Translations under genes and position numbers: made by a program
Shown here: positions 31,217 through 53,752 of the stretch, piece after piece
Layout: the number at the start of each line of letters is the position of its first letter
How positions within the stretch are numbered: the first letter of the stretch is position 1
Source of the DNA: Promethearchaeota archaeon
GTDB taxonomy: Archaea; Asgardarchaeota; Lokiarchaeia; Sigyniarchaeales; SOKP01
Direction: 5' to 3'
Length of the DNA stretch: 64,000 nt
Assembly: GCA_016840085.1 (NCBI GenBank)
Contig: JAEOTA010000056.1
Location: 35,717-99,716 of the forward strand
The notes under the pieces: generated by a model
What the model was told of the DNA's origin: nothing
Seen by the model: only the letters and a program-made list of their open reading frames with translations
The model's database searches: none

Positions 31217-31612
31217 ATGAATGACATATTAGAAGTTAAATTCATATCAGCAAAAAAAGGGAAAGGAGTATTTGCTAATAAGGATATCAGAAAGGATACG
31301 ATCATTGATGTTGCACACGTTATTCCTTTACCAAACAAGGATTATAAAAGAATATTTAAAACTATTTTATATAATTATTGTTATATATGGGAAGATCCTA
31401 AGCACAATCCAGAATATAAAAATGCTATTTCCTTAAGTGTTAGTCAATTTATAAATCATTCTTATAATCCAAATGTTAGATATATTTATGATTACGATAA
31501 TAATTGTATTGAATTTGAAACATTACGAGATATTTCTAAAGGGGAAGAAATGTTAGTCAACTATAATGGTTTAGTTGATGATAAAAGTCCAGTTTGGTTT
31601 GAAATCGAATAG
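31217..31612 (+). CDS. SET-domain protein (stand-alone lysine methyltransferase type)
   Basis: KGKGVFA, FINHSYNPN, LRDISKGEEMLVNY. Confidence 0.92.
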   Translation: MNDILEVKFISAKKGKGVFANKDIRKDTIIDVAHVIPLPNKDYKRIFKTILYNYCYIWEDPKHNPEYKNAISLSVSQFINHSYNPNVRYIYDYDNNCIEFETLRDISKGEEMLVNYNGLVDDKSPVWFEIE

Positions 31613-35479: not shown

Positions 35480-36406
35480 ATGAATGAACAGTATCGTTCT
35501 CTTTTGAAAAATAACAAAATAGATGAAAATACAACATCTCGCGCTAGCTGCTGTGATAATCCATTCGTAGAATCTCGAGATGGAAATAAGGTTTGTCTCA
35601 ATTGTGGGGTAATTTTTGAAAGGACATTTGTCGGAAATGAAAGAAGAGCCTATACCATAGAGGAAATCCAGAACCGTAGAAGAACTGAACCCCGGTGGAG
35701 AGATTTTGGGCCTAGAACAATGCTGCCAAACACGAAGACGGACAGTAAAGGCAAATCAATTGGAGCAAAGGAGCAAGCACTTTTTTCTCGTCTTTCTAAA
35801 ATTCAAAATTCCTTAATTTCAAGCATAGAAAGAAATTTCTGGGAAGCAAAACCCAAGTTAAAAATGCTTACTTCTAAATTAAACATCCCTGAATATATTG
35901 CAGAAACAGCATGGAAAATATATAGTATTGTGGCGAAAAAGAAATTAACAATGGGAAGGTCAATTAATGGTTTTATTTCAGGTTCATTATATGCTGCTAT
36001 ACGTGTTCATGATTTTCCACGATTATTAGATGAAGTATGCGAAGCGTCTTTAACACCAAGGAGAACAGTTCATAGAAGCTTGGCTATGATAATTAGAGAA
36101 GTTTTACCCGAATTAAAATTAAGATATCAACCAATCACCGCAGAGAGTTTAGTTTTTCGTTTTGGAAATGAGTTAGAATTACCAATTGCAATACAAAAGA
36201 ATGCAATCAATATGTTAAAAAATGCTTCGAAGAATGGGTTAAAAAGGACAGGGAAAGATCCAAAGGGTTTGGCAGCAGCGTGTATTTATATTGCGGCTAA
36301 GAAAGGTTGTATTCGAAAAACACAATCTAATGTAGCAGATGTGGCTAAAATTACTGAAGTTACCTTAAGATCTCGAGCTAAACAAATAAAAAGCAAATTA
36401 TCATAA
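35480..36406 (+). CDS. tfb: Transcription initiation factor IIB (TFB)
   Basis: Zn ribbon CC...CLNCG; cyclin repeats GRSING and GKDPKGLAAACIYIA; TQSNVADVAKITEVTLR. Confidence 0.93.
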   Translation: MNEQYRSLLKNNKIDENTTSRASCCDNPFVESRDGNKVCLNCGVIFERTFVGNERRAYTIEEIQNRRRTEPRWRDFGPRTMLPNTKTDSKGKSIGAKEQALFSRLSKIQNSLISSIERNFWEAKPKLKMLTSKLNIPEYIAETAWKIYSIVAKKKLTMGRSINGFISGSLYAAIRVHDFPRLLDEVCEASLTPRRTVHRSLAMIIREVLPELKLRYQPITAESLVFRFGNELELPIAIQKNAINMLKNASKNGLKRTGKDPKGLAAACIYIAAKKGCIRKTQSNVADVAKITEVTLRSRAKQIKSKLS

Positions 36407-37156: not shown

Positions 37157-38119
37157 GTGAAAAAAAACGAGAAAACTAAGCCAGAAATCTCACTTTGTCC
37201 TCATAAGAATGTAAAACAAGAGGGAGGACATATAGTTTGCCATGATTGTGGTTTAATTTTGGAAGAAAAAGCTTTTTATAAAGCAATACCTCGAAGTGAA
37301 TTCTATACAGATTCCCAGAGGGATTATGAAAGAAGAATAAAAATGAGCGATTCAAAAGCTCTGCAAGATCCTAAAATAAGAGAAAAATATGAAAGAATTA
37401 AGACACTTGAGAAGTGGTTCCGGGATTATCAATCAGACTTCTCAGAGCAAAAGAAAACAATCGAATTACTAAAAAGTCATGGAATAGGATTAAATATTGA
37501 TACCGTAAAATATCAAACAATAAAAGATCGGTATCTTCGATTTAACAAATATCATAGACACACATATCAAAACATGGTTATTATCTTTTTAGCTATTGTT
37601 TGGATGGAGATTAAAGATACAACAAATATCCGACTAGAAGAATTCATCAAGGTTTCAAGAGAGCTAGCACATAAGATTAATAAAAAAATGTTGTATAATG
37701 CGATGTTAAAAATAAAAAGAACAGAGAAGATGTTAAAAGATAAGAAAGATACAATGGATTTGGAAAAAGAAATCAAAGCTCGAATAAAAATTGTATTTCA
37801 AAAAGATTTAAATAGTATTCCATTTGAAGCGGTTAAAAATTCTGTTTTAAATAAAGAAGAATTTGTAAAATTAAAGATCAAAATGCAACTTTTAGCCGAC
37901 AAAATACTAAATAAAATTTCCTATTATCAAATTCAGAATTTTAATTATAAAGCATTTACAGCAGGGTTAATCTATTATATAGGACAAACTTTAGATAATA
38001 GAAAGATATTTACACAAAACCTTATCGAAAAATATAGTAAATTCTCAAGTACTACAATTAGAAAGAAATATCACACCTTAAAAGAGATTTTAGGTGAACC
38101 TGAAATCTTCACACTCTAG
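37157..38119 (+). CDS. Divergent TFB-like protein
   Basis: CPH...VCHDCGLIL Zn ribbon; C-terminal FTAGLIYY...FTQ..I...SSTTIRKKY cyclin/HTH end. Confidence 0.75.
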   Translation: MKKNEKTKPEISLCPHKNVKQEGGHIVCHDCGLILEEKAFYKAIPRSEFYTDSQRDYERRIKMSDSKALQDPKIREKYERIKTLEKWFRDYQSDFSEQKKTIELLKSHGIGLNIDTVKYQTIKDRYLRFNKYHRHTYQNMVIIFLAIVWMEIKDTTNIRLEEFIKVSRELAHKINKKMLYNAMLKIKRTEKMLKDKKDTMDLEKEIKARIKIVFQKDLNSIPFEAVKNSVLNKEEFVKLKIKMQLLADKILNKISYYQIQNFNYKAFTAGLIYYIGQTLDNRKIFTQNLIEKYSKFSSTTIRKKYHTLKEILGEPEIFTL

Positions 38120-38216: not shown

Positions 38217-41093
38217 ATGAAATCTATGGCAGTCCACATAACTACAGATAACACATACTATTCTCAACCGATTGATGTATTGATAGAGTTTTTTAAAACC
38301 GATCAAGACCACGGATTGAATTCTTATGAATTAAATGAAAGATATCGAAATTCTGGATACAATGAGTTACCTAAAATTAAAAAATCGATTTGGAAGATAT
38401 ATCTTGCCCCTATTTTTAATTTTTTAATTGTAATTCTTATTATAACTAGCATAGTTATTTCTATTTTAGGATCTCCAGAAGAGACCGTTATAATTTTTGT
38501 AGTTATTATAATTAATTCTGCTACTGTTGTTATTCAGCAATATAGAGCACAAAAGGCTTTAGAGTCTTTAAGACAAATTGCTGCATTAAAAGCTAAAGTA
38601 TTAAGAGATGGAGAACAAAAAGAAATATCTAATAGAGAATTAGTTCCGGGAGATATTGTTATATTGGAACAAGGTGATAAGATTCCTGCCGATGGTAGGA
38701 TCATTAATTCTGTTAATCTAACTGTTGATGAGGCTCCATTAACAGGTGAAAGTGAGCCAGTAGAAAAAATAAATAAAACCTTAGAAAAAAATGATATTCA
38801 TCTTCAAGAACAAACTAATATGGTATTTATGGGTACATATATCCATACTGGACGGGCTAAATCATTAATCACAGGTACAGGTGTAAACACAGAGATAGGA
38901 AAAATCTCAGTTACTCTAAATGAAATGGGTAGTATTGAAGATATTCCACTAACAAAAAAATTAAATCGTTTAGGATTTATTTTAGGAACGATTGTCATAA
39001 TAAATTTAATTATTTTAATTGCTTATAAGCTTAACATCTTAATTCTTGAAGAAAATTTTATTAAATCTGAAATAATTGATGCTTTAGTTAGTTCTATTCT
39101 AAGAGCTACTACTGTTATACCATTTAATTTACCTTTATTATCAACATTAGTTTTATTGACAGGAATTCTTGAGATGGCACAGAGTGGGGTAATTATAAAA
39201 AATTTGTCAGCTATAGAATCTCTTGGTCGTGTATCCGTTATTTGTTCCGATAAAACAGGAACTATAACGAAAAATGAGATGGCTGTGGAAAATATTTGGA
39301 TAAATAATGAGGAATATAATGTCAGTGGTTCTGGGTACGATGCAGATGGAGTAATATCCAAGGACGATCATGTAGTTATCTTAAATGACAATCCTACTTT
39401 CCAAAAATTCATTGATTCTATAGTTCTGAACAATAATGCTAAACTTATCTATGAAGATGTTAAAATAAAGGCTAGAGATAGAAAAGAAATAGCAGTAAGA
39501 CGATCATTGGGTTCTCCTACAGAGGCAGCATTACTAGTATTAGCAGAAAAAGCTGGTTATATTATCTATGATATTAAAAAAAGATATGATTTAATTACTG
39601 AATTTTCTTTTAGTTCTGAATTAAAACGTATGAGTTCAGTATATTTATTTAAAGAAAAGGAAGAGGTAATTTTTGTGTATACAAAAGGAGCCCCTGAGAG
39701 AATTATTGATATATCCTCTCAAATGGAAATAAATGGTGATATCAAACCTTTTAATAAAGATTTGAAAGATGAGATTACAGAAAAAATCAAGAATCGTGCA
39801 GTCCAAGGATATAGAACATTAGCCATTGCTTATAAACACTTTAATAACGTTAACACTCCTAATAGAGAAGAAATTGAAAGTAATTTAATTTTTTTAGGAT
39901 TTGTATCAATTATGGATCCACCCCGAATTGGTGTCGAAAAATCCGTTGAAGAATGTAAGGCTGGTAATATAAAAGTTATTATGATAACGGGTGATCATCC
40001 CGCTACAGCAAAAACAATTGCTACTCAAATGGGTATTTATAAGGAAGGAGATATTGTAGCAGAAGGTAATCAAATAAAGGATCTGAAACCAAATGATTTT
40101 AATAAAGTATCTGTATTTGCTCGTGTAGAACCTTCTGATAAAGAAATTATTGTCGAAAATTATCAAAGTGAGAACCATGTTGTGGCTATGACAGGAGACG
40201 GAATTAACGATGCTCTTGCTCTAAAATTAGCTAATGCAGGTATAGCAATGGGAATAACAGGAACTGATGTAGCTAAGGAAACTGCCGATATGGTTATTTC
40301 AGATGATGATTTTACTTCAATCGAAAAGGGAGTTAGAATAGGACGAGGTATTTTTTCTAAAATTAGAACAATAATCTATTTTTTTATATGTTTGAATATA
40401 GTGGAGGCAATTATATTTTTTGGATATGAATTTTTACCTACATTTGAGCTATTTAGTTCAGAATGGCAACATATTTATATTTTCGGCATTGTTCATTCTC
40501 TTCCTTCTTTAGCATTAGTACTTGACACGCGTCCTAAAGATATTATGCATGAATATCCTAGAGACGAGGAGGAATTATTAAATAAAAATATTTGGATTCT
40601 ATTATTAATACAAGCTTTTCTAATGGGATTAGGTTTAGTATTGGCATTGCAATTAACAATAGGTGGGTTGATTCCCTTGAATGAATGGAATTTAAATCCG
40701 CACATTAGTTATATTATTCCAGATTCTACAACTGAAGAATTAATTGCTCAAAAAGCTAGAACAATGTTCATAACTACTTTATACATTATTGAGACAAATT
40801 TTATTTGGTCTATTAGAAGGCCTAATAAATCAATTATTAAGAGCTTAAAAGAGGAATTAAGTTTTACTATCTTAGTTGTAACTCTATTTACATTAGGACT
40901 CCATATAATGCATATTTGTTTTTCCTTTGTTGTAAATTACTATATTAATGATGTTAGTGGTTTAAATTTCCAGATAAATTTCATGTTTCTTAGCGGTACA
41001 GATTGGTTAATTTGTATACTTCTTGCTATACCAGGAATAATAGGAATTGAATTTGTAAAATATTTAGCTAGAATCAGAAATATAAGATTTTAA
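38217..41093 (+). CDS. P-type ATPase (P2-like scaffold, atypical TM motifs)
   Basis: LTGES, CSDKTGT, KGAPE, DPPR, MITGD, TGDGIND; TM4 reads IPFNLP. Confidence 0.95.
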   Translation: MKSMAVHITTDNTYYSQPIDVLIEFFKTDQDHGLNSYELNERYRNSGYNELPKIKKSIWKIYLAPIFNFLIVILIITSIVISILGSPEETVIIFVVIIINSATVVIQQYRAQKALESLRQIAALKAKVLRDGEQKEISNRELVPGDIVILEQGDKIPADGRIINSVNLTVDEAPLTGESEPVEKINKTLEKNDIHLQEQTNMVFMGTYIHTGRAKSLITGTGVNTEIGKISVTLNEMGSIEDIPLTKKLNRLGFILGTIVIINLIILIAYKLNILILEENFIKSEIIDALVSSILRATTVIPFNLPLLSTLVLLTGILEMAQSGVIIKNLSAIESLGRVSVICSDKTGTITKNEMAVENIWINNEEYNVSGSGYDADGVISKDDHVVILNDNPTFQKFIDSIVLNNNAKLIYEDVKIKARDRKEIAVRRSLGSPTEAALLVLAEKAGYIIYDIKKRYDLITEFSFSSELKRMSSVYLFKEKEEVIFVYTKGAPERIIDISSQMEINGDIKPFNKDLKDEITEKIKNRAVQGYRTLAIAYKHFNNVNTPNREEIESNLIFLGFVSIMDPPRIGVEKSVEECKAGNIKVIMITGDHPATAKTIATQMGIYKEGDIVAEGNQIKDLKPNDFNKVSVFARVEPSDKEIIVENYQSENHVVAMTGDGINDALALKLANAGIAMGITGTDVAKETADMVISDDDFTSIEKGVRIGRGIFSKIRTIIYFFICLNIVEAIIFFGYEFLPTFELFSSEWQHIYIFGIVHSLPSLALVLDTRPKDIMHEYPRDEEELLNKNIWILLLIQAFLMGLGLVLALQLTIGGLIPLNEWNLNPHISYIIPDSTTEELIAQKARTMFITTLYIIETNFIWSIRRPNKSIIKSLKEELSFTILVVTLFTLGLHIMHICFSFVVNYYINDVSGLNFQINFMFLSGTDWLICILLAIPGIIGIEFVKYLARIRNIRF

Positions 41094-41173
41094 TCATATT
41101 CACATACTTTAAGAATTTTAGAAATTTTTTAACCGACTTGAGAAAATGTTATATATAAAATTTAAAACTCAAT

Positions 41174-42019
41174 ATGAGAGAAGAGAAAAATATGTCTGAA
41201 GAAATTAAATATTTATCTGAGGATAATAAAGTTTTCATAAAAAAATATAGTGGAGTTATCTTTATAGGGTCAATACTCGTTTTATTCGTAGTCTTAGCCC
41301 TTTTTAATATTAATTTTGGGCAATGGCTTGCGGACACCATTATGTGGTTTTATAGGAATTACGGAGTATTTGGGATTTATCTTGGAGTTTTTGTCATAAG
41401 TATTTTTGGAAATTTCACAGTAATTTTTCCTGTACCATATGTAATTGCTCTTATTGTGATTTCTGCTGTCATTGGTACTGTTAATCCAATTATGCTGGGT
41501 CTCTTTGGAGCTCTTGGAGCGAGTATCGGTGAAGTATCTGCCTGGTTAATTGGACGGGGATCCCAAAAAATGTTTGGAAATTCGGAGAGCATTGAACGCA
41601 TGAAAAGATATGTGGAGTTAGGTTGGGCTCCAGTTTTAATTTTTATATTTGCAGCAACACCGCTTCCTGATGATGCTTTTCTAATTGTTTTAGGAATTAC
41701 TGGCTACAGTATCATAAAAACATTAATATTTACATTTATTGGAAAGTTCGTTCTTTGCTTTATATGCAGTGCCCTCCCACTTTGGTTTGCAGATACGGCC
41801 TTTGGAAATTTTCTATTTAATTTATTCGGAATTAATCTTGAAGCTGCTAAAACTGGAGTTATTCCGCCTAGTTCCCCTTTAGAAATTTTAAGAAGTTCAT
41901 TAGTGTGGGCAGCAACAATAATTATTATGTTCTTGTTGGTATATGTTGATTGGGGAAAAATTCTAAAAAAGAAAAAAAAAGATTCGAATAATTTCAGCGA
42001 GGAAATTCAAAATCAATAA
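41174..42019 (+). CDS. DedA/VTT (SNARE-associated; VMP1/TMEM41-like) membrane protein
   Basis: FPVPY, GASIGEVSAWLIGRG, FAATPLPDD, F.GK. Confidence 0.88.
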   Translation: MREEKNMSEEIKYLSEDNKVFIKKYSGVIFIGSILVLFVVLALFNINFGQWLADTIMWFYRNYGVFGIYLGVFVISIFGNFTVIFPVPYVIALIVISAVIGTVNPIMLGLFGALGASIGEVSAWLIGRGSQKMFGNSESIERMKRYVELGWAPVLIFIFAATPLPDDAFLIVLGITGYSIIKTLIFTFIGKFVLCFICSALPLWFADTAFGNFLFNLFGINLEAAKTGVIPPSSPLEILRSSLVWAATIIIMFLLVYVDWGKILKKKKKDSNNFSEEIQNQ

Positions 42020-42169
42020 AGGAGAATTAAAACATCAAAATTTTTTTTAAAATATCTAGTGAAAAAGTAATAAGTTAAAAATTATGATTATTATAGGTTA
42101 TTTATTATATTGAGACAATTTCGATTTTAAATCTCTTTAATCAATATTAAAAATTAGAGAAGACCCACT

Positions 42170-45085
42170 ATGAAATCTATAGAAGAAAATTTTTATAATC
42201 TTGGTCTAGAGCAGATTTACAAAAAATTAAAGACCGATCCTGATAAAGGTCTAACTGAAAAAGAAAGCATAAAGCGTTTAGAAGAATTTGGTTTAAATGA
42301 AGTTCCAAAAGTATCTAAAGGGTTCATCAAGATTTATTTAGCACCTTTATTTAATTGGTTAATCGTTATATATCTTATAGGGGCTTTAATACTATTTTTA
42401 GCAGCTATTTTTGGTGGAGAGGGTAATCTAATGTTTATTCTTTTAACTTTATTTATTGTCTTTCTAAATTGTATAGTTGCAATTATTCAACAGTATAGAG
42501 CAACTAAAAAATTGAAAGCACTAAGAGAATTATCAGCACCCACTTCCACGTTGATCAGAGATGGGCAGAAAAAAGAAATTCTGACTAAGGAAATTGTTGT
42601 GGGCGATTTATTAGTTTTAAATCAAGGTGATAAAATACCCGCAGATGCGAGAATAATCGAATCTAACAACCTAGTAGTAAATGAGGCTTCACTAACAGGA
42701 GAAAGTGAGCCTGTGAGAAAGGATGAAAAGGGAGACAAATTGGATAAAAAGGATATTACTATTGGGCAACGGAGCAATATGGTATTCTATGGTACTTATA
42801 TAACAACGGGAAATGGCAAATCAATTATTGTTAAAACAGGAGGAGAAACTGAAATCGGAAAGATCTCACATGGCTTAGAGGAAGCTGGAACCAGTGAAAT
42901 TCCTATTAGAAAAAAAATGAACAATTTTGGGAAGTGGTTAGGACTAATTATTTTTGGTTTCTGGTTTATAATATTATTAATTCTTTGGGCTGTAAGAGGA
43001 GAAGCCGATGTTGTCGAAAGTTTGAATTCTGCGCTCGATCTTATGCCAATTAATTTACCTTTACTCACAACTATTGTTTTGATTACAGGGGTTGTAGCTA
43101 TGGCACATCATGGTGTTATAATAAGAAATCTGGCGTCCGTTGATAGTTTAGGGAGAGTAAGTATAGTATGTTCAGATAAAACTGGTACATTAACCAAAAA
43201 TCAAATGGCAATTCAACATGTTTGGACAAATGGTTCAGTTTTTAGAGTTACGGGTAGTGGGTATTCTCCTGAAGGAGCAATTATTTTAATGGATGATCCA
43301 AAAAATCCTGTCTATGTAAAACATATTGATGATTATCCTCATCTTAAATTATTACTCACTACGGGATTTTTAAATAATAATTCTGCATTAGTAAAAAATG
43401 AGATTGAAATTTCTGGTAAGGCAATTCCTAAATGGAATGTTATTGGATCGCCAACAGAAGGAGCTTTAATGGTGTTATTTCAAAAGGGAATGGGAGATTA
43501 TCTATTAGATGATTATAAATCTGTAAAAGAATATCCTTTTGATTCTTCAGTGAAAAGAATGACTAAAGTCTATGAAAAAGATCTCTCTTACTTTTCATTT
43601 ACAAAAGGAGCAAGTGAAGTTTTAATTCCATTATGTTCAAAAATAATATACAATGATGTTGAAGTTGATTTTAGCGAAGAAATTAAAACTAAAGTTATGG
43701 AGATCGTAAATCTTTACGCTAATCAAGGATATAGAATATTGAGTTTATGTAATAAAAAAATGGAATTCATGCCACCTAAAGGAGAGGAAGGAAGAGAAGT
43801 TAGTGAGTCAGACTTAGTATTTATTGGTTTTGTAACAATATTGGATCCTCCAAGAGAAGGAGTCAAAGAATCTGTAGAACAATGTCATGAAGCAGGTGTA
43901 GATGTTGTAATGATTACTGGCGATTCTCCTTCAACAGCTCGAGCAATTGCAACTCAGATCGGTGTCGTATCAGATGAGAATGATATAGCAATTGAAGGAA
44001 AAGATATTAAAAATTTCAAATCGTATGATGAGTTTAGAAAAATCAAGGTATTTGCTCGTGTTTCTCCAGAACATAAGGAAGATATAGTTGAGAAATATCA
44101 AGAACAGAAAAAAGTAGTAGCTATGACAGGTGATGGTGTTAACGATGCATTGGCATTAAATATGGCCGATGCGGGTGTAGCTATGGGAATAATGGGAACA
44201 GATGTTGCTAAAGAGGCATCTGATATGGTAATCTCAGATGATTCATTTAACTCAATTGTAACCGGCATTCATCATGGAAGGGGGATTTTTGCTAGAATTC
44301 GCGCAATAGTATTTTTTTATATAGTTACAAATGTATTCGAAGGAATAGTTCAATTTATATTAGCTATTATTTTAGATTTACCTTATTTTTTAGATGACGC
44401 ATTTTATTTACAATGGATCTTCTTATCAATAACTCTACATGTATTTCCCGGTTTAATACTTACTTTTGATACTACTTCTAAAGAGGTTATGGAAGAGAAA
44501 CCTCGTGATTCAGAAGAAATTCTTTCAAAAAACATTATTGCACTTCTTTTTGTGTTTGGAATTTTATTAGCAATTAGTATGATTATTGTTTATTTTACTA
44601 CTATTAGAGGTCTATACCCAGTTTTCCCTGAAAATTGGAATTTTGGTGGCTTAAATGAAGCTTATCTTTATTCTCCAGAAACTGAATCATTATGGCTTGA
44701 TATACTTCGTAATTTTTATCCAAATGCAACAGATCTGGAACTATTACAATATGGAAAAACGCTTACAATGATGATGGTTACATTATTTTTCTGTGAGTCG
44801 TTTTTAGTTTTTCAAATTAGACGCCCTAATAAATCTCTTATTAGAAGTTTGATTGAAGATAGTAATAAAAGAATGTACTTGATAATTGGCTTTCTTTTTA
44901 TAGTATTCCTTATGTTAATGTATATCCCTGGAGTTCAAGTTGGCTTAGCATCTGTTGGAATTAATTTTATGTTTATGTTTCTAACGGGTCTAGATTGGTT
45001 AATATGCTTTTTGATTTCACTAATCTGTATCGTTTCATTTGAGATTGTCAAATTTGTAGCACGTAGATATGGGATAAAATTTTAA
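42170..45085 (+). CDS. P-type ATPase (P2-like scaffold, atypical TM motifs), paralogue
   Basis: LTGES, CSDKTGT, KGASE, DPPR, TGDGVND; TM4 reads MPINLP. Confidence 0.95.
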   Translation: MKSIEENFYNLGLEQIYKKLKTDPDKGLTEKESIKRLEEFGLNEVPKVSKGFIKIYLAPLFNWLIVIYLIGALILFLAAIFGGEGNLMFILLTLFIVFLNCIVAIIQQYRATKKLKALRELSAPTSTLIRDGQKKEILTKEIVVGDLLVLNQGDKIPADARIIESNNLVVNEASLTGESEPVRKDEKGDKLDKKDITIGQRSNMVFYGTYITTGNGKSIIVKTGGETEIGKISHGLEEAGTSEIPIRKKMNNFGKWLGLIIFGFWFIILLILWAVRGEADVVESLNSALDLMPINLPLLTTIVLITGVVAMAHHGVIIRNLASVDSLGRVSIVCSDKTGTLTKNQMAIQHVWTNGSVFRVTGSGYSPEGAIILMDDPKNPVYVKHIDDYPHLKLLLTTGFLNNNSALVKNEIEISGKAIPKWNVIGSPTEGALMVLFQKGMGDYLLDDYKSVKEYPFDSSVKRMTKVYEKDLSYFSFTKGASEVLIPLCSKIIYNDVEVDFSEEIKTKVMEIVNLYANQGYRILSLCNKKMEFMPPKGEEGREVSESDLVFIGFVTILDPPREGVKESVEQCHEAGVDVVMITGDSPSTARAIATQIGVVSDENDIAIEGKDIKNFKSYDEFRKIKVFARVSPEHKEDIVEKYQEQKKVVAMTGDGVNDALALNMADAGVAMGIMGTDVAKEASDMVISDDSFNSIVTGIHHGRGIFARIRAIVFFYIVTNVFEGIVQFILAIILDLPYFLDDAFYLQWIFLSITLHVFPGLILTFDTTSKEVMEEKPRDSEEILSKNIIALLFVFGILLAISMIIVYFTTIRGLYPVFPENWNFGGLNEAYLYSPETESLWLDILRNFYPNATDLELLQYGKTLTMMMVTLFFCESFLVFQIRRPNKSLIRSLIEDSNKRMYLIIGFLFIVFLMLMYIPGVQVGLASVGINFMFMFLTGLDWLICFLISLICIVSFEIVKFVARRYGIKF

Positions 45086-45163: not shown

Positions 45164-45709
45164 ATGTTAAAGGGAAATAAAATAAAACTTGGACCTGTTA
45201 AGAGAGAATATATTGATTATTATATAAAATGGATGAACGACCCGGAACTCACCCAATATCTCATGATGTATCGTCCTCTAACAAGAGAAATGGAAGAAGA
45301 ATGGTTTAATAGTCTAAAAAATCGTGAAAATTTCTTTATTTTTGCAATTTTATTATTTAACCAAGATGAAAATGAGAAACTTCTTGGAAATTGTTCAATA
45401 GACGTTGATTGGAAAAACCGTATAGGAACTTGTGGAATTGTGATAGGAGAAAAAGAATATCACAGCAAAGGGTATGGAACAGAAGCAATGAAGTTGCTTG
45501 TTGATTATGGGTTTAATACACTTAATCTTAATAGAATACAACTTGAAACGTTTAGTTTCAATAAACGTGCTTTAAAATCATATCAAAAAGTTGGTTTTAA
45601 AGAGGAGGGAACTCGACGACAAGCTATATATGTGAACGGTGAATACTACGATGCCATTATGTTGGGAATCCTTAAAAATGAATGGCAGAAAATAAAATCC
45701 GAATCTTAA
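45164..45709 (+). CDS. GNAT acetyltransferase (RimJ/RimL family)
   Basis: SKGYGTEAM, N.RA...YQKVGFKEEG. Confidence 0.92.
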   Translation: MLKGNKIKLGPVKREYIDYYIKWMNDPELTQYLMMYRPLTREMEEEWFNSLKNRENFFIFAILLFNQDENEKLLGNCSIDVDWKNRIGTCGIVIGEKEYHSKGYGTEAMKLLVDYGFNTLNLNRIQLETFSFNKRALKSYQKVGFKEEGTRRQAIYVNGEYYDAIMLGILKNEWQKIKSES

Positions 45710-45839: not shown

Positions 45840-46955
45840 ATGACAGATATTAAATTTGGAACTAACCTATATTATTCTCAAAATTGGGATCTTCTTAAAA
45901 AGAAGGTTGTAACTGCTAGCCAAGAAAATTGGGATTCTATCTGGCTTCCAGATCACTTAAGTGGTATTCCGGGTAGTGCTATAGACGATTTTTTTTGTCT
46001 GTGGCCTGTATTTGGCGCAATTTCTGAATTAGCTAAGGGAAAGATTTTAGGCTCTGCTGTAACTGATCCTTACAGATTGCATCCGGCGTCTTTGGCTCAA
46101 ATGGCAGCAACACTTAACCACATGACTGGCGGTAATTTTATTTTAGGGATAGGCGCGGGGGAAGGAATGAATTTAAAGGCATATAACATACCATTTAACC
46201 ATGCTGTTACTAAAATGAGTGAATCTATAAGACTAATGAAGGAATTTTGGGATAAAGGAAAGGGTATAACTTTTAATGGGAAATATTACCAAACTAAGAA
46301 TGCCGTTATGCTCCCCAAGCCAATAACAAAAATACCTGTGTGGGTAGCCGGAAATGGACCTAAAACTTTAAGGCTTACAGCTGAACTTGCTGATGGTTGG
46401 ATGCCTTTAGGTGCATTTCCGGATTTATATAAAGATAATCGGAATAAAATTTTTGATATCATGAAAAAAGAAGGAAGAGATCCAATTAATTTCACTTTTG
46501 GATATTTTGCACGAATTTTCATAAATGACGATGAGGATAAGTTAAAGTCTTTTTATAATGGTATAAAGGCTGGTTTAAGTATACAACCAAGAACATTAAA
46601 GAAATTAGGATATTGGAAAGATGAATTTGAACAAATATTCCAAGAGGCTACCGGCTTTAGTAGTGATGAAATGAGTCTATTGGTATATGATAGAGAAGAT
46701 GTTGCAAAGTTTAATTATAAAAAATTAGCTCCATTAGCAGAACAAATTCCTGATAAATTAATTAGAGAAAGTGGTATGATCGGTACTAAGGAAGATATTA
46801 TAAAAAAGATCCAGAAATTTGTTGACGCGGGTGCGCAGCATTTCATTTTCGAGCTTCAACATGGAGTATCAAGTAGAAATGCCCCTTTTACTTATTTTGA
46901 TGTAACTAAAATTATAAGTGAAGAAATTATCCCGATATTTAAAGATTCTAAGTAA
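45840..46955 (+). CDS. LLM-class flavin/F420-dependent oxidoreductase
   Basis: DSIWLPDH, LGIGAGE, WVAGNGPK, ADGW. Confidence 0.9.
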   Translation: MTDIKFGTNLYYSQNWDLLKKKVVTASQENWDSIWLPDHLSGIPGSAIDDFFCLWPVFGAISELAKGKILGSAVTDPYRLHPASLAQMAATLNHMTGGNFILGIGAGEGMNLKAYNIPFNHAVTKMSESIRLMKEFWDKGKGITFNGKYYQTKNAVMLPKPITKIPVWVAGNGPKTLRLTAELADGWMPLGAFPDLYKDNRNKIFDIMKKEGRDPINFTFGYFARIFINDDEDKLKSFYNGIKAGLSIQPRTLKKLGYWKDEFEQIFQEATGFSSDEMSLLVYDREDVAKFNYKKLAPLAEQIPDKLIRESGMIGTKEDIIKKIQKFVDAGAQHFIFELQHGVSSRNAPFTYFDVTKIISEEIIPIFKDSK

Positions 46956-47054
46956 TGATTTTTTGTTTTTTATTTTTTCTTAACTATTCTTCATAACAAA
47001 TTAATTTTTAAGAGATATCCATAATAGAACAAAAAAAAGAAAATTAGGATAAAA

Positions 47055-48104
47055 TTATTTCTCTAATTCTTCAAAATAGGGTATTATTTTATCTCGAAAT
47101 ATCTCATAAACTTTATTTGGATCAGGTCCCCTATTCATGATACTTAGGTGGGTTATTCCAGCTACTTTATATTTTTCTATACTCTCAATAACATCATCAG
47201 TTGTACCTATACAGTTGAAATCTTGGAGAATTGTTTCAGGTAATCGATTTAAGTGACTGAAAACATCTAAAGCAACATTGCTGTCCATACCAAAATCATG
47301 CACGCTCATCCCTTCAGGTAAATTTAAACCAGGGTATGCTTCATTAGTAATCCAAGAATTTAGTAAATATGAAGTCTTAAAAAATTCACATCTTTTTTCA
47401 GCATTTTCAGGATTATCGTCATCTATGGCTACAAAACAATCATATACATAATCTATCTCATCTGGATCTCGACCAGCTTTTTTTGCCGTATCCTTAACTT
47501 CATTTATATTCTTTTTAATTACCCATGGTGGTTGATAAAGCGGATACCATCCATCTCCTAATTCTCCTGTTATTTGACGTGTTTTTGGCCCATTAGCAGC
47601 GATATAAATGGGTGGACTCTTCTGAATAGGGCTTATTTCAATGAAGGCATTTTTTATTTCTCCCCAGAAATCACTTTGATGGTTGATTCGTTTCTCAGTC
47701 CAAAACTTTCTCAATAAGATAATATATTCACGCAATTTTGAAACAGATCTCTTTCGACTTAACCCATACATGTCAATATTCATTGCCTCACCGGCTCCAA
47801 GTCCTATCATAGCTCTTCCATTAGAAATTTGATCTAATGTAGCTACTTTATGTGCCATTAATGCGGGATGAAAGCGATGGCAATCAGAGACACCAGTGCA
47901 TAATTTTACCTTTTTGGTTATCATTGCTAAAGCTGTTAAAAAGCAATACGCATCATAGCAAGTTCCTGTACCTTTTTGTGGCGACATTGTTGTATGATCT
48001 GCATAAAAAACTCCGAAAAAACCACTTTCCTCAGCCTTTTTAGTTCCTTCAAACATAAATTCTAGACGAGGGGTTGGAACGGGTATATGAAAACTAAATC
48101 TCAT
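47055..48104 (-). CDS. LLM-class flavin/F420-dependent oxidoreductase
   Basis: YADH, ATLDQISNGR, GLGAGE, YIAANGPK, GDGW. Confidence 0.9.
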   Translation of the reverse strand: MRFSFHIPVPTPRLEFMFEGTKKAEESGFFGVFYADHTTMSPQKGTGTCYDAYCFLTALAMITKKVKLCTGVSDCHRFHPALMAHKVATLDQISNGRAMIGLGAGEAMNIDMYGLSRKRSVSKLREYIILLRKFWTEKRINHQSDFWGEIKNAFIEISPIQKSPPIYIAANGPKTRQITGELGDGWYPLYQPPWVIKKNINEVKDTAKKAGRDPDEIDYVYDCFVAIDDDNPENAEKRCEFFKTSYLLNSWITNEAYPGLNLPEGMSVHDFGMDSNVALDVFSHLNRLPETILQDFNCIGTTDDVIESIEKYKVAGITHLSIMNRGPDPNKVYEIFRDKIIPYFEELEK

Positions 48105-48263
48105 TATAAATCAATCTCCTCTATTATTTGTCATTCTATTTCAGAAATTTTAGTCTAAAACTATTTTTTATTTAATTTATTTTAATAATTGTAGAAATTC
48201 TATAGGTTTATAAAATTTTTAGAATTTCTTTATAGTGTTCATAAAATATACTAAAGTGATAAG

Positions 48264-49385
48264 ATGGATCTTGATATAAAAATCGGAACAGAGGGAACAT
48301 TTATACCTCCCTTTGATAGAGGCATTGAAACTGTTAAAAGAATCGAAGCTACTGGCTATGATTCAGTGTGGTTTGCAGATCATCTAATGGGTTGGATTCC
48401 CGAATCAATCTGGACTCCTGATCTCATTCAAATGTCAACAATTCAGAATAGTCCTCATGATTTTTATGATGTTTATTCTGTGATGGCAATTGCAGCTTGG
48501 AGTACCCAAAATATTAAACTCGGTACTAGTGTTACTGAACCATTTAGGAGACACCCAGCTGTTCTTGCTCAAACCTTTTTAACATTGGATCAAGCATCAA
48601 AAGGACGAGCTATTCTTGGTATTGGAACAGGAGAAGGGGAAAATGTTATTCCTTATGGTATAAAATGGGAAAAACCTGTTAGTAGACTAGAGGAAGCAAT
48701 TAAAATAATTAAACTTCTTTGGAAAAATGAAGGAAAAGTTAGTTTTGACGGGGAATTTTGGAAATTAAAAAATGCTGTGATTTCTATAAAACCTTATAGA
48801 GAAGGCAAATTTCCTCCAATATGGGTCGCAGCACATGGACCCAAGATGTGCGAATTGACCGGTAGATTAGCAGATGGATGGTTACCAACGAACTTCAATA
48901 TTTCGACTTATAAAGAAAAGCTTGATATTATTCGAAATTCTGCTAAAAAAGCAGGGAGAAATCCAGAGGATATTACTCCTGGTCTCTGGCATAATATAAT
49001 TATTGATGAGGATCATAGTGAATGTGATAGATTATTAGAAACTGCATTTGTGAAAAACTATAGTCTTCTTCAATCAAATGAATATTTTAAACAATTTGGA
49101 ATTTCACATCCCCTTGGCGAGGATTTTTATGGTCTTCTTGAATATATTCCTACACAATATACTCGAGAAACAATGCTTGAAGCTTTTGGGAAAATTCCAT
49201 CAAAATTATGCGAGGAAACTTTTTTACATGGTACCCCAGATGAGATTATATCTAAAATTGAAGATTATGCAAGGGTTGGGTTAAAGCATATCGTCTTATA
49301 TAACATGACCTATTCTTGTGATATAAGCAAGATAAAAAGTTCATTCGGGTGTGTGAAGAAGGTTTTACAGTATTTTAAAGGTTAA
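48264..49385 (+). CDS. LLM-class flavin/F420-dependent oxidoreductase
   Basis: DSVWFADH, TLDQASKGR, GIGTGE, WVAAHGPK, ADGW. Confidence 0.9.
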   Translation: MDLDIKIGTEGTFIPPFDRGIETVKRIEATGYDSVWFADHLMGWIPESIWTPDLIQMSTIQNSPHDFYDVYSVMAIAAWSTQNIKLGTSVTEPFRRHPAVLAQTFLTLDQASKGRAILGIGTGEGENVIPYGIKWEKPVSRLEEAIKIIKLLWKNEGKVSFDGEFWKLKNAVISIKPYREGKFPPIWVAAHGPKMCELTGRLADGWLPTNFNISTYKEKLDIIRNSAKKAGRNPEDITPGLWHNIIIDEDHSECDRLLETAFVKNYSLLQSNEYFKQFGISHPLGEDFYGLLEYIPTQYTRETMLEAFGKIPSKLCEETFLHGTPDEIISKIEDYARVGLKHIVLYNMTYSCDISKIKSSFGCVKKVLQYFKG

Positions 49386-52981: not shown

Positions 52982-53752
52982 TTATTTGAATCCTTGACAG
53001 AATGATTCTACATTCTTAGGTAATACCTCATGATTGTAACCTCCTTCTAATAGAGCATATCGTCTTCCTTTACATAACTTTTCAGAATAAATTTTCATTA
53101 GACTGCCCAATTCAAAATAATCTGCAGGGTATAATAGATGCCCCCAATCTTCAATTCCTTGATCAAATCCTGCGCTTGCTACAAAAATATCAATATCCTT
53201 TAAACTTTGCATATATGATTCAACTTCTTTGATATAATTAACATGACCACTTGAACTAGGATTAAGAATTTTTGCTCTAAAATTATCATCTCTATTTGTT
53301 AAAATATTAATAGTACCATCACCGGTATGAAGGTCAAAATCTAATATAAAAGCAGATTTAATTTTCCCTTCTGAATACAATTTCAAAAGACTTATACTAA
53401 TATTATTAAAAAAACAAAAACCCCAACAAGAATCTGCTGATGCATGATGCCCAGGAGGCCTAATAACAGCAAAGGTAGGGTTGCCAATATAACTTTCTTT
53501 TGCAGCTAGTATCGCTCCACCTGCAGCTAATGACGCCAATTCAAATAATAATTCATTTTTCTTTATATTCTGAAGATGCCTTTTAGTATGAGCTCGTAAA
53601 ATATCCTCTTCAATTGCGGGAGTGGGTGTTATTATTTCATATTCTTTATTCCTTGATAAAACATCCATAATTCCTTCCAATCGTCCCGGAGAAGCAGCAG
53701 GATCCCCAGCATATTCAGAATTATAATAACGTTCATGAAATACAATCTTCAT
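52982..53752 (-). CDS. Histone deacetylase family protein (compact)
   Basis: RPPGHHA, GFCFFNN, DFDLHTGDGT, SAGFD, LEGGY. Confidence 0.93.
   Translation of the reverse strand: MKIVFHERYYNSEYAGDPAASPGRLEGIMDVLSRNKEYEIITPTPAIEEDILRAHTKRHLQNIKKNELLFELASLAAGGAILAAKESYIGNPTFAVIRPPGHHASADSCWGFCFFNNISISLLKLYSEGKIKSAFILDFDLHTGDGTINILTNRDDNFRAKILNPSSSGHVNYIKEVESYMQSLKDIDIFVASAGFDQGIEDWGHLLYPADYFELGSLMKIYSEKLCKGRRYALLEGGYNHEVLPKNVESFCQGFK

Follow-up and report, generated by a model that had tools for sequence, protein, structure and literature searches.

The locus examined here poses the question of what is transported by P-type ATPases that lack the usual Glu of their fourth membrane helix (M4), and whether the gene lying between two such pumps takes part in the transport. 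It belongs to a window of 64,000 nucleotides (the whole stretch of DNA that was analysed) from a Promethearchaeota archaeon of the order Sigyniarchaeales, contig JAEOTA010000056.1. Two ATPase genes, here called A1 and A2, are separated by a gene of the DedA/VTT type. A first-pass annotation had seen in the three genes a possible lipid-translocation system, perhaps relevant to the origin of the P4 lipid flippases. The present analysis points elsewhere. A1 and A2 are almost certainly old paralogues of one Asgard subfamily of P2-type ATPases and, with a probability of about 0.5, may be single-subunit pumps which move a small cation other than Ca2+ by means of a Glu-His pair. The features of the locus, in window coordinates and with residues assigned to their SERCA positions, are as follows.

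38217..41093, forward strand: P-type ATPase A1, a paralogue of the Asgard clade, 958 amino acids (aa), catalytic motifs intact
39117..39134, forward strand: M4 motif of A1, with Phe303 at the position of E309 and Asn304 at that of G310
40395..40496, forward strand: M5-M6 site of A1, with Asn727 (N768), Glu730 (E771), His752, Phe756 (N796) and His760 (D800)
40791..40793, forward strand: Glu859 in M8 of A1 (E908)
41174..42019, forward strand: DedA/VTT-domain membrane protein, 281 aa (Pfam VTT_dom, PF09335)
42062..42112, forward strand: AT-rich element upstream of A2; it follows a T8 run (42041-42048)
42170..45085, forward strand: P-type ATPase A2, a paralogue of the Asgard clade, 971 aa, intact, with a predicted 10-helix P2-type fold
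43037..43060, forward strand: M4 of A2, with Asp290, Pro293, Ile294 (E309) and Asn295 (G310)
44330..44440, forward strand: M5-M6 site of A2, with Asn721 (N768), Glu724 (E771), Ser753 (N796), Leu756 (T799) and His757 (D800)
44795..44797, forward strand: Glu876 in M8 of A2 (E908)

The frames of A1, DedA and A2 all lie on the forward strand and contain zero internal stops. Close homologues bear Lokiarchaeota or Promethearchaeota names, as expected of a Lokiarchaeia genome. TGES, DKTGT and TGDGxND were each found in both ATPases, and the M4 motifs sit exactly where the first-pass annotation had put them (39117-39134 and 43043-43060). Its remark that the A domain reads TGES rather than the DGET of P4 pumps holds for A1, A2 and their whole clade. 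The two proteins are just 43% identical, and the tandem A1-type and A2-type paralogues are not sisters in the tree. Since proteins so far apart share the M4 substitution, and since the M4 type is fixed in 103 relatives, the change is due neither to chance nor to decay. A pseudogene is ruled out by the intact frames and the invariant site in relatives, and a sequencing artefact by the presence of the same motif in >100 relatives.

The residues of the transport site were counted in 103 clade sequences, which are not independent as ~40 come from one family. The SERCA numbering is anchored on the alignment with LMCA1 and on the ordinary P2 pumps that were aligned together with the clade. The position of E309 is occupied by Ile (89 sequences), Leu (7) or Phe (3) and that of G310 by Asn (94/103), and M4 reads PINI, in one family also PISI. 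Two positions are invariant, namely D800, which is always His, and E771, which is always Glu. N768 is retained in 101/103, being lost in some paralogues, and E908 in 98/103, with Ile in the other five. Residues at the N796 and T799 positions vary, most of them being non-polar; E109 is replaced by Gln in 103/103 and D59 by Asn. Among further representatives at the 50% level, a single one (P0139) has no His in M6.

Read against SERCA, the ligands E309, N796 and D800 of Ca2+ site II are replaced in the two pumps by Ile or Phe, by Ser or Phe, and by His. In site I, three of the five ligands are retained (N768, E771 and E908) and T799 and D800 are not. Judged by these residues, Ca2+ site II is erased and site I is re-tuned around the Glu-His pair. 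The change in M6, that is, D800 to His with the loss of N796 and T799, together with the retention of N768, E771 and E908, had been missed by the first-pass annotation and is larger than the change in M4. Some differences are fixed between the paralogues: Asp290 in M4 is fixed in A2 alone (21/21), whereas A1 has a second His in M6 (His752, fixed in A1 alone) and an Arg in M8 (21/21 each). These differences, located towards the outer end of each of the three helices, suggest that A1 and A2 may differ in affinity or substrate.

The nearest relatives in structure and sequence are cation pumps. The first structural matches of an AlphaFold model (predicted local distance difference test, pLDDT, 82.8) are SERCA, SPCA and Na,K pumps, and P2/P3 pumps (Z 26.6-31.6) rank above P4/P5 pumps (Z 20.7-25.5). 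The nearest solved sequences are LMCA1 and SPCA1, and the P2A group to which these belong (LMCA1, PDB 6zhf/6zhh; SPCA1/PMR1; SERCA) gives the best sequence matches (E 6e-121). P2A pumps and the clade have in common TGES, DKTGT, GDGxND, the 10-helix fold, N768/E771, E908 and their place in the tree. They differ in E309 (Ile/Phe), G310 (Asn), D800 (His), E109 (Gln) and the loss of N796 and T799. Both P2A models score below their cut-offs (TIGR01522, 461/482 bits against 798; TIGR01116, 458/424 against 703), whereas the ordinary Asgard P2A pump scores over both. The clade resembles P3A pumps (AHA2, Pma1 and bacterial forms) in having a hydrophobic side chain where M4 otherwise carries Glu and a titratable one in M6 where SERCA has D800. 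However, the latter is His and not Asp, the M5 Arg is missing, E771 and E908 are kept, TIGR01647 reaches 337/342 bits against a cut-off of 615.5, and the branch is separate from that of bacterial P3A. In the case of P5, neither the M4 motif PP(E/A)LP nor a grouping with P5 was found, and the scores are 256/242 bits against a cut-off of 618. P6 (CtpE) is a prokaryotic clade defined by a replaced M6 Asp (PMC10654040), but in CtpE the M4 motif is still PEGL and the M6 residue is Ile, while the Asgard pumps show the reverse in M4 and His in M6. By these defining residues, the clade appears as a new subfamily-level variant of P-type ATPases, outside P2A, P3A, P4, P5 and P6.

Maximum likelihood trees (LG+C20; supports from the Shimodaira-Hasegawa-like approximate likelihood ratio test, SH-aLRT) were built with three bacterial references for P3A and with P4 (12) and P5 references drawn from metagenome contigs; eukaryotic P2, fungal and plant P3A and P6 were not included. 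Viral contigs, scanned for the motifs of P4 and P3A, yielded no usable sequence. The trees recover one clade with 100% SH-aLRT inside the P2/P3 group and separate it from P4 and P5. In this respect the view of the first-pass annotation, that the clade derives from P2 pumps and has a non-canonical transport site, is borne out by the site residues and the trees alike.

The clade is old and has spread vertically over 12 Asgard families. Matches at E 1e-190 or better occur in ~165 of 251 Asgard genomes and in 12 of 28 families (hand count), a threshold at which the paralogues of greatest divergence are missed. When 1.84 billion representatives at the 50% level were searched with a profile, ~45 clade members stood sharply apart from ordinary PEGL pumps. 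The 80 named genomes among the M4-pattern matches listed are all Asgard or unnamed archaea, except for one Aerophobetes and one Bathyarchaeia bin, and the Asgard labels among them comprise Thor, Hod, Heimdall, Hermod, Atabeya, Odin and Loki. The cultured MK-D1 and Ca. L. ossiferum carry three clade pumps each in addition to ordinary ones; Ca. L. ossiferum also has a further P2 pump outside the clade (locus L493), with PSGL in M4 and canonical M5/M6 ligands. At locus L066 (3963-4589, forward strand), a P-type ATPase fragment of 208 aa lies on the opposite strand beside a full clade pump.

A wide spread outside Asgard archaea is ruled out, with clade pumps in 1 of 15 genomes of the Aerophobetes family and true members in 2 of 301 genomes of the phylum of the Bathyarchaeia bin. 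The Aerophobetes contig (L327) bears a Loki-type tandem pump pair (69% identity over the C-terminal part), and because it has this pair and is alone in its family, it is probably a misbinned Asgard contig. The Bathyarchaeia-phylum members (L494 and L495) are full-signature clade pumps on DNA of 46-49% GC, which may reflect transfer or misbinning. Searches of the ESM Atlas returned only matches to generic cation ATPases, and no published description of the clade was found in a literature search which missed most subscription journals. A survey of Asgard transporters classes Asgard pumps as putative Ca2+ ATPases (PMC7997004), and according to a 2023 review undescribed diversity remains among prokaryotic P-type ATPases, with P6 the only new one listed (PMC10654040).

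What, then, do these pumps carry? The substrate is probably some inorganic cation, and it stands at about even odds that this is H+ or a monovalent cation. Each pump would run the usual phosphoenzyme cycle as a single subunit, and a small cation other than Ca2+ would pass through the former site I. The Glu-His pair would act as titratable acceptor and donor, and the Ile of M4 would form a hydrophobic gate of the kind present in P3A H+ pumps. H+ or H3O+ would be the first choice of substrate, followed by NH4+, Na+ or K+. Three considerations favour H+ or a monovalent ion. N768 and E908 are lost in some members whereas the Glu and the His are invariant, a pattern more in keeping with an acid-base pair than with a metal site of four ligands. 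P3A pumps likewise combine a hydrophobic side chain in M4 with a titratable one in M6, the latter (at the D800 position) being their H+ acceptor (PMC10654040). Finally, pumps for Ca2+ and heavy metals are already present in the genome, whose five P-type ATPases are A1, A2, one ordinary PEGL pump and two P1B pumps. As ordinary PEGL pumps are found here as well as in MK-D1 and Ca. L. ossiferum, Ca2+ export would be covered. Also in favour of this reading, neighbours vary by family and no partner gene recurs among 79 clade loci, so that a fixed beta subunit is ruled out. By analogy, the clade most likely works like P3A H+-ATPases without being a member of them.

Several points weigh against such a cation pump. 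To our knowledge, His serves as H+ acceptor in no characterised P-type pump. The clade has no P3A-type Arg in M5 and does not group with P3A. The acids at the cytosolic mouth are neutralised (the changes of E109 and D59 described above), which is unexpected for a metal exporter and neutral for H+. No ion is indicated by any gene context. Furthermore, His can be a built-in counter-ion, as in P1B-4 (PMC10654040), in which case the M4 cavity would be left free for a non-ionic substrate.

The alternative which survives best is a divalent-metal pump, a tentative reading of rather low probability. N768, E771, His800 and E908 would form one site for Mn2+, Fe2+, Zn2+, Co2+ or Ni2+, or else a weak single Ca2+/Mg2+ site, and the His would shift the selectivity to softer ions. 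The three retained ligands of SERCA site I speak for it, and a set of one His, two Glu and one Asn is typical of transition-metal sites. P6/CtpE shows, moreover, that Ca2+ can still be transported when the M6 residue is altered (PMC10654040). Nevertheless, the Glu-His pair persists where E908 is Ile (5/103) or where N768 is lost, the acidic funnel on the cytosolic side is neutralised, no metal regulator or resistance gene recurs beside the 79 loci, and this genome already has two P1B metal pumps.

A pump for an organic substrate, convergent with P4, would be unlikely. It supposes that a protonated His with the Glu forms a built-in counter-ion giving spontaneous phosphorylation, and that a lipid head group, a polyamine or another solute binds in E2P to an M4 cavity made of Ile, Asn and backbone carbonyls and is moved inward, with no need of DedA. 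Built-in counter-ions are known in P1A, P1B, P3A and P4 (PMC10654040), the side chains of site II are non-polar, and the PINI of M4 (PISI in one family) is near to the PISL of P4. On a purpose-built P4 profile the clade scores level with ordinary P2 pumps (medians 113 and 111), despite lower scores than these on the P5 and P3A profiles.

The clade further has in common with P4 (ATP8A2, Drs2, Neo1) the Ile after the M4 Pro (Phe in A1, and followed by Asn), an Asn before M3 and a fold common to all P-type pumps. The 12 P4 references have DGE(T/S) in the A domain. The lipid-handling residues of P4, K873 and N905 of ATP8A2 (PMC4937031), are absent from the clade: the M5 position is Lys in 9 and Arg in 3 of the 12 references but Ile, Val or Leu in the clade, and the M6 position is Asn in 9 of 12 but Phe, Tyr or Ser. 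At the E771 position, Glu (34/34) stands against non-polar residues in P4. TIGR01652 gives 118/111 bits with a cut-off of 431, and the ordinary Asgard P2A pump reaches 104. Columns exclusive to a pair number 6 for the clade and P4, 8 for P2 and P4, and 93 for the clade and P2. No recurrent lipid-synthesis or amine genes lie nearby, which further disfavours an organic substrate.

The M4 Ile itself, which the first-pass annotation had taken as a flippase mark, is not diagnostic, because P3A H+ pumps and KdpB also have no Glu there. P3 pumps are known to be without it (PMC4937031), and M4 reads PVAMP or PVALP in bacterial P3A and PTT in KdpB. Together with the missing P4 residues in M5 and M6 and the retained E771, this leaves the argument unsupported. 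The absence of a CDC50-like gene, also stated at first, extends to the whole genome (PF03381, no match, best E 0.71), but it is not used here as an argument since P4B pumps need none.

The relation to P4 by descent was examined with constrained trees. A tree forced to join the clade with P4 is 8 log-likelihood units worse, and the approximately unbiased (AU) test does not reject it (p-AU 0.38), whereas a control joining P4 with two PEGL pumps is rejected (p 0.006). When P4 was slid over all 76 branches (5000 replicates, where 10000 are advised), its best position was beside P5 (weight 0.84), and the stem of the clade received a weight of 0.011 (p-AU 0.086). Every position inside the clade was rejected (p-AU 0.015 or less). 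Had P4 arisen from the pump copy of an Asgard host, it should be nested within the clade, and such nesting is rejected by these tests; of the suggested relevance to P4 origin, only a sister position of the whole clade is left, not rejected in either test. That position is unlikely, a weak case rather than a refuted one, and its signal may be an attraction between long stems. A prokaryotic ATP-driven lipid flippase which is sister of P4, uses the Glu-His pair as counter-ion and has DedA as an optional scramblase in two genera would accordingly be highly improbable.

We turn now to the DedA gene. Its presence between the ATPases on the same strand, as first annotated, is confirmed by PF09335 (37.3 bits, cut-off 33.9), and it is one of three DedA genes in this genome. 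It shares with VMP1, TMEM41B and bacterial DedA two conserved Pro-containing re-entrant motifs, and is probably a lipid scramblase or lipid-carrier flippase; it may resemble the VMP1 subfamily. Undecaprenyl-phosphate flippases (COG0586) carry acidic residues at the first and an Arg at the second re-entrant tip (PMC10127716), whereas these are absent from the conserved columns of 20 DedA orthologues (tips mapped by eye). In one Asgard family (L157-L159), the orthologue is flanked by a GT2 glycosyltransferase on one side and, judging from its motif, a probable sugar-nucleotidyltransferase on the other, a setting hinting at lipid-carrier handling (recycling), which it fits better than pumps. In another family, the orthologue is contained in a protein of 520-530 aa, fused to a further domain (L152:805-2403, L154:802-2379, L155:799-2370).

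The distribution of the gene follows that of the pumps poorly. Within the family of this genome the orthologue occurs in 19 of 55 genomes. In 13 of these, all in two genera, it is at the pump locus, and in the six others, from two other genera, it is elsewhere; it is also off-locus in four other families. Of the two linked genera, one has it in 4 of 19 genomes and the other in 9 of 21, and A1 abuts A2 directly in their other genomes examined. Outside the family, no DedA gene was found within ~5 kb of 59 clade loci (0/59, some flanks being short), and this DedA is missing from four pump-bearing families (0/26, 0/3, 0/10 and 0/1). Five genomes of those families, three of them single-contig, gave no match to the PF09335 model, and several families show the reverse, that is, DedA without the pump. 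In the closed genomes of MK-D1 and Ca. L. ossiferum, DedA genes lie >200 kb from every clade pump. An ORF with no Pfam match is found between DedA and A2 at two loci (L141:1-1369 and L142:1-1094, both on the reverse strand).

Mapped on a tree of A2, the linked state requires a minimum of three changes, and the nearest relatives of this genome lack this DedA gene. Either a single insertion followed by several losses or a small number of transfers may lie behind this pattern. The AT-rich element upstream of A2 is similar whether DedA or A1 lies upstream (by eye; the genome has ~30% GC), and is probably A2's own promoter. Scans for sigma-70 promoters (35 versus 40) and terminators (4 versus 2.5) remained at chance level with models ill-suited to archaea. 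A complex prediction for the membrane helices of A2 with DedA (score 0.00, mark 0.32) is not evidence either way. The DedA protein is very probably not an obligate partner of the pumps, and the three-gene cluster is a local gene order. It would be a separate lipid scramblase or lipid-carrier flippase, whose gene would have come to lie between A1 and A2 in the line leading to the two genera. The partnership proposed in the first-pass annotation is thus not supported, as the link is confined to two genera, patchy there and absent elsewhere, even though the adjacency is not peculiar to this genome and is shared by 12 others.

A role of DedA as an optional regulator, modulating one pump in the two genera without being essential, would be quite improbable. 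VMP1 and SERCA interact physically and functionally in animals (bioRxiv 10.1101/2020.12.18.423352), and the position of DedA is retained across two genera. However, the nearest relatives lack the gene altogether, one genome keeps it though A1 is missing, two have an extra ORF between it and A2, and the element upstream of A2 is the same with or without it. Plain synteny explains the pattern, two other neighbours being more constant than DedA. The least probable reading is the originally proposed lipid-translocation unit of two ATPases and DedA related to P4 by descent: although the A1-DedA-A2 order recurs in other genomes of the two genera, where the orthologue, if present, is always at this locus, and the AU test spares the union with P4 while rejecting its control, evidence against this reading comes from the narrow and patchy linkage, from the off-locus, distant and missing DedA genes described above, and from the placement of P4, which is rejected inside the clade and favoured beside P5.

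Two further genes flank the cluster.

37157..38119, forward strand: TFIIB-like gene, with a weak N-terminal Zn-ribbon match (NCBIfam PRK00423, E 2.6e-4)
45164..45709, forward strand: GNAT acetyltransferase

The TFIIB-like gene precedes A1 in 18 of 20 family loci, being the most constant neighbour of the pumps and, as far as tested, functionally unrelated to them. A full TFIIB is located one gene away from it, at 35480-36406. The GNAT gene is the downstream neighbour in 11 of 20 family loci, which offer no evidence of a functional link with the pumps. It is followed by three luciferase-like monooxygenase genes in alternating orientation (45840-49385), the first confirmed by Pfam. The window also includes a small SET-domain gene (31217-31612, forward strand; Pfam SET, E 3.6e-17) and a gene of the histone-deacetylase family (52982-53752, reverse strand). 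At seven Thorarchaeia-type loci, an ORF of 655 aa is directly downstream of the pump (e.g., L071:3683-5650, reverse strand), with a weak match to UFL1, the UFM1 ligase (PF09743, E 1e-5).

The interest of the locus is therefore that of an orphan pump family, and the three-gene cluster matters little. The transport site of the clade is unlike that of any characterised P-type subfamily. Its substrate would add a new chemistry to the P-type family, with His at the central position of M6, and would be informative on how the prokaryotes closest to eukaryotes keep their ions or their membranes in balance.

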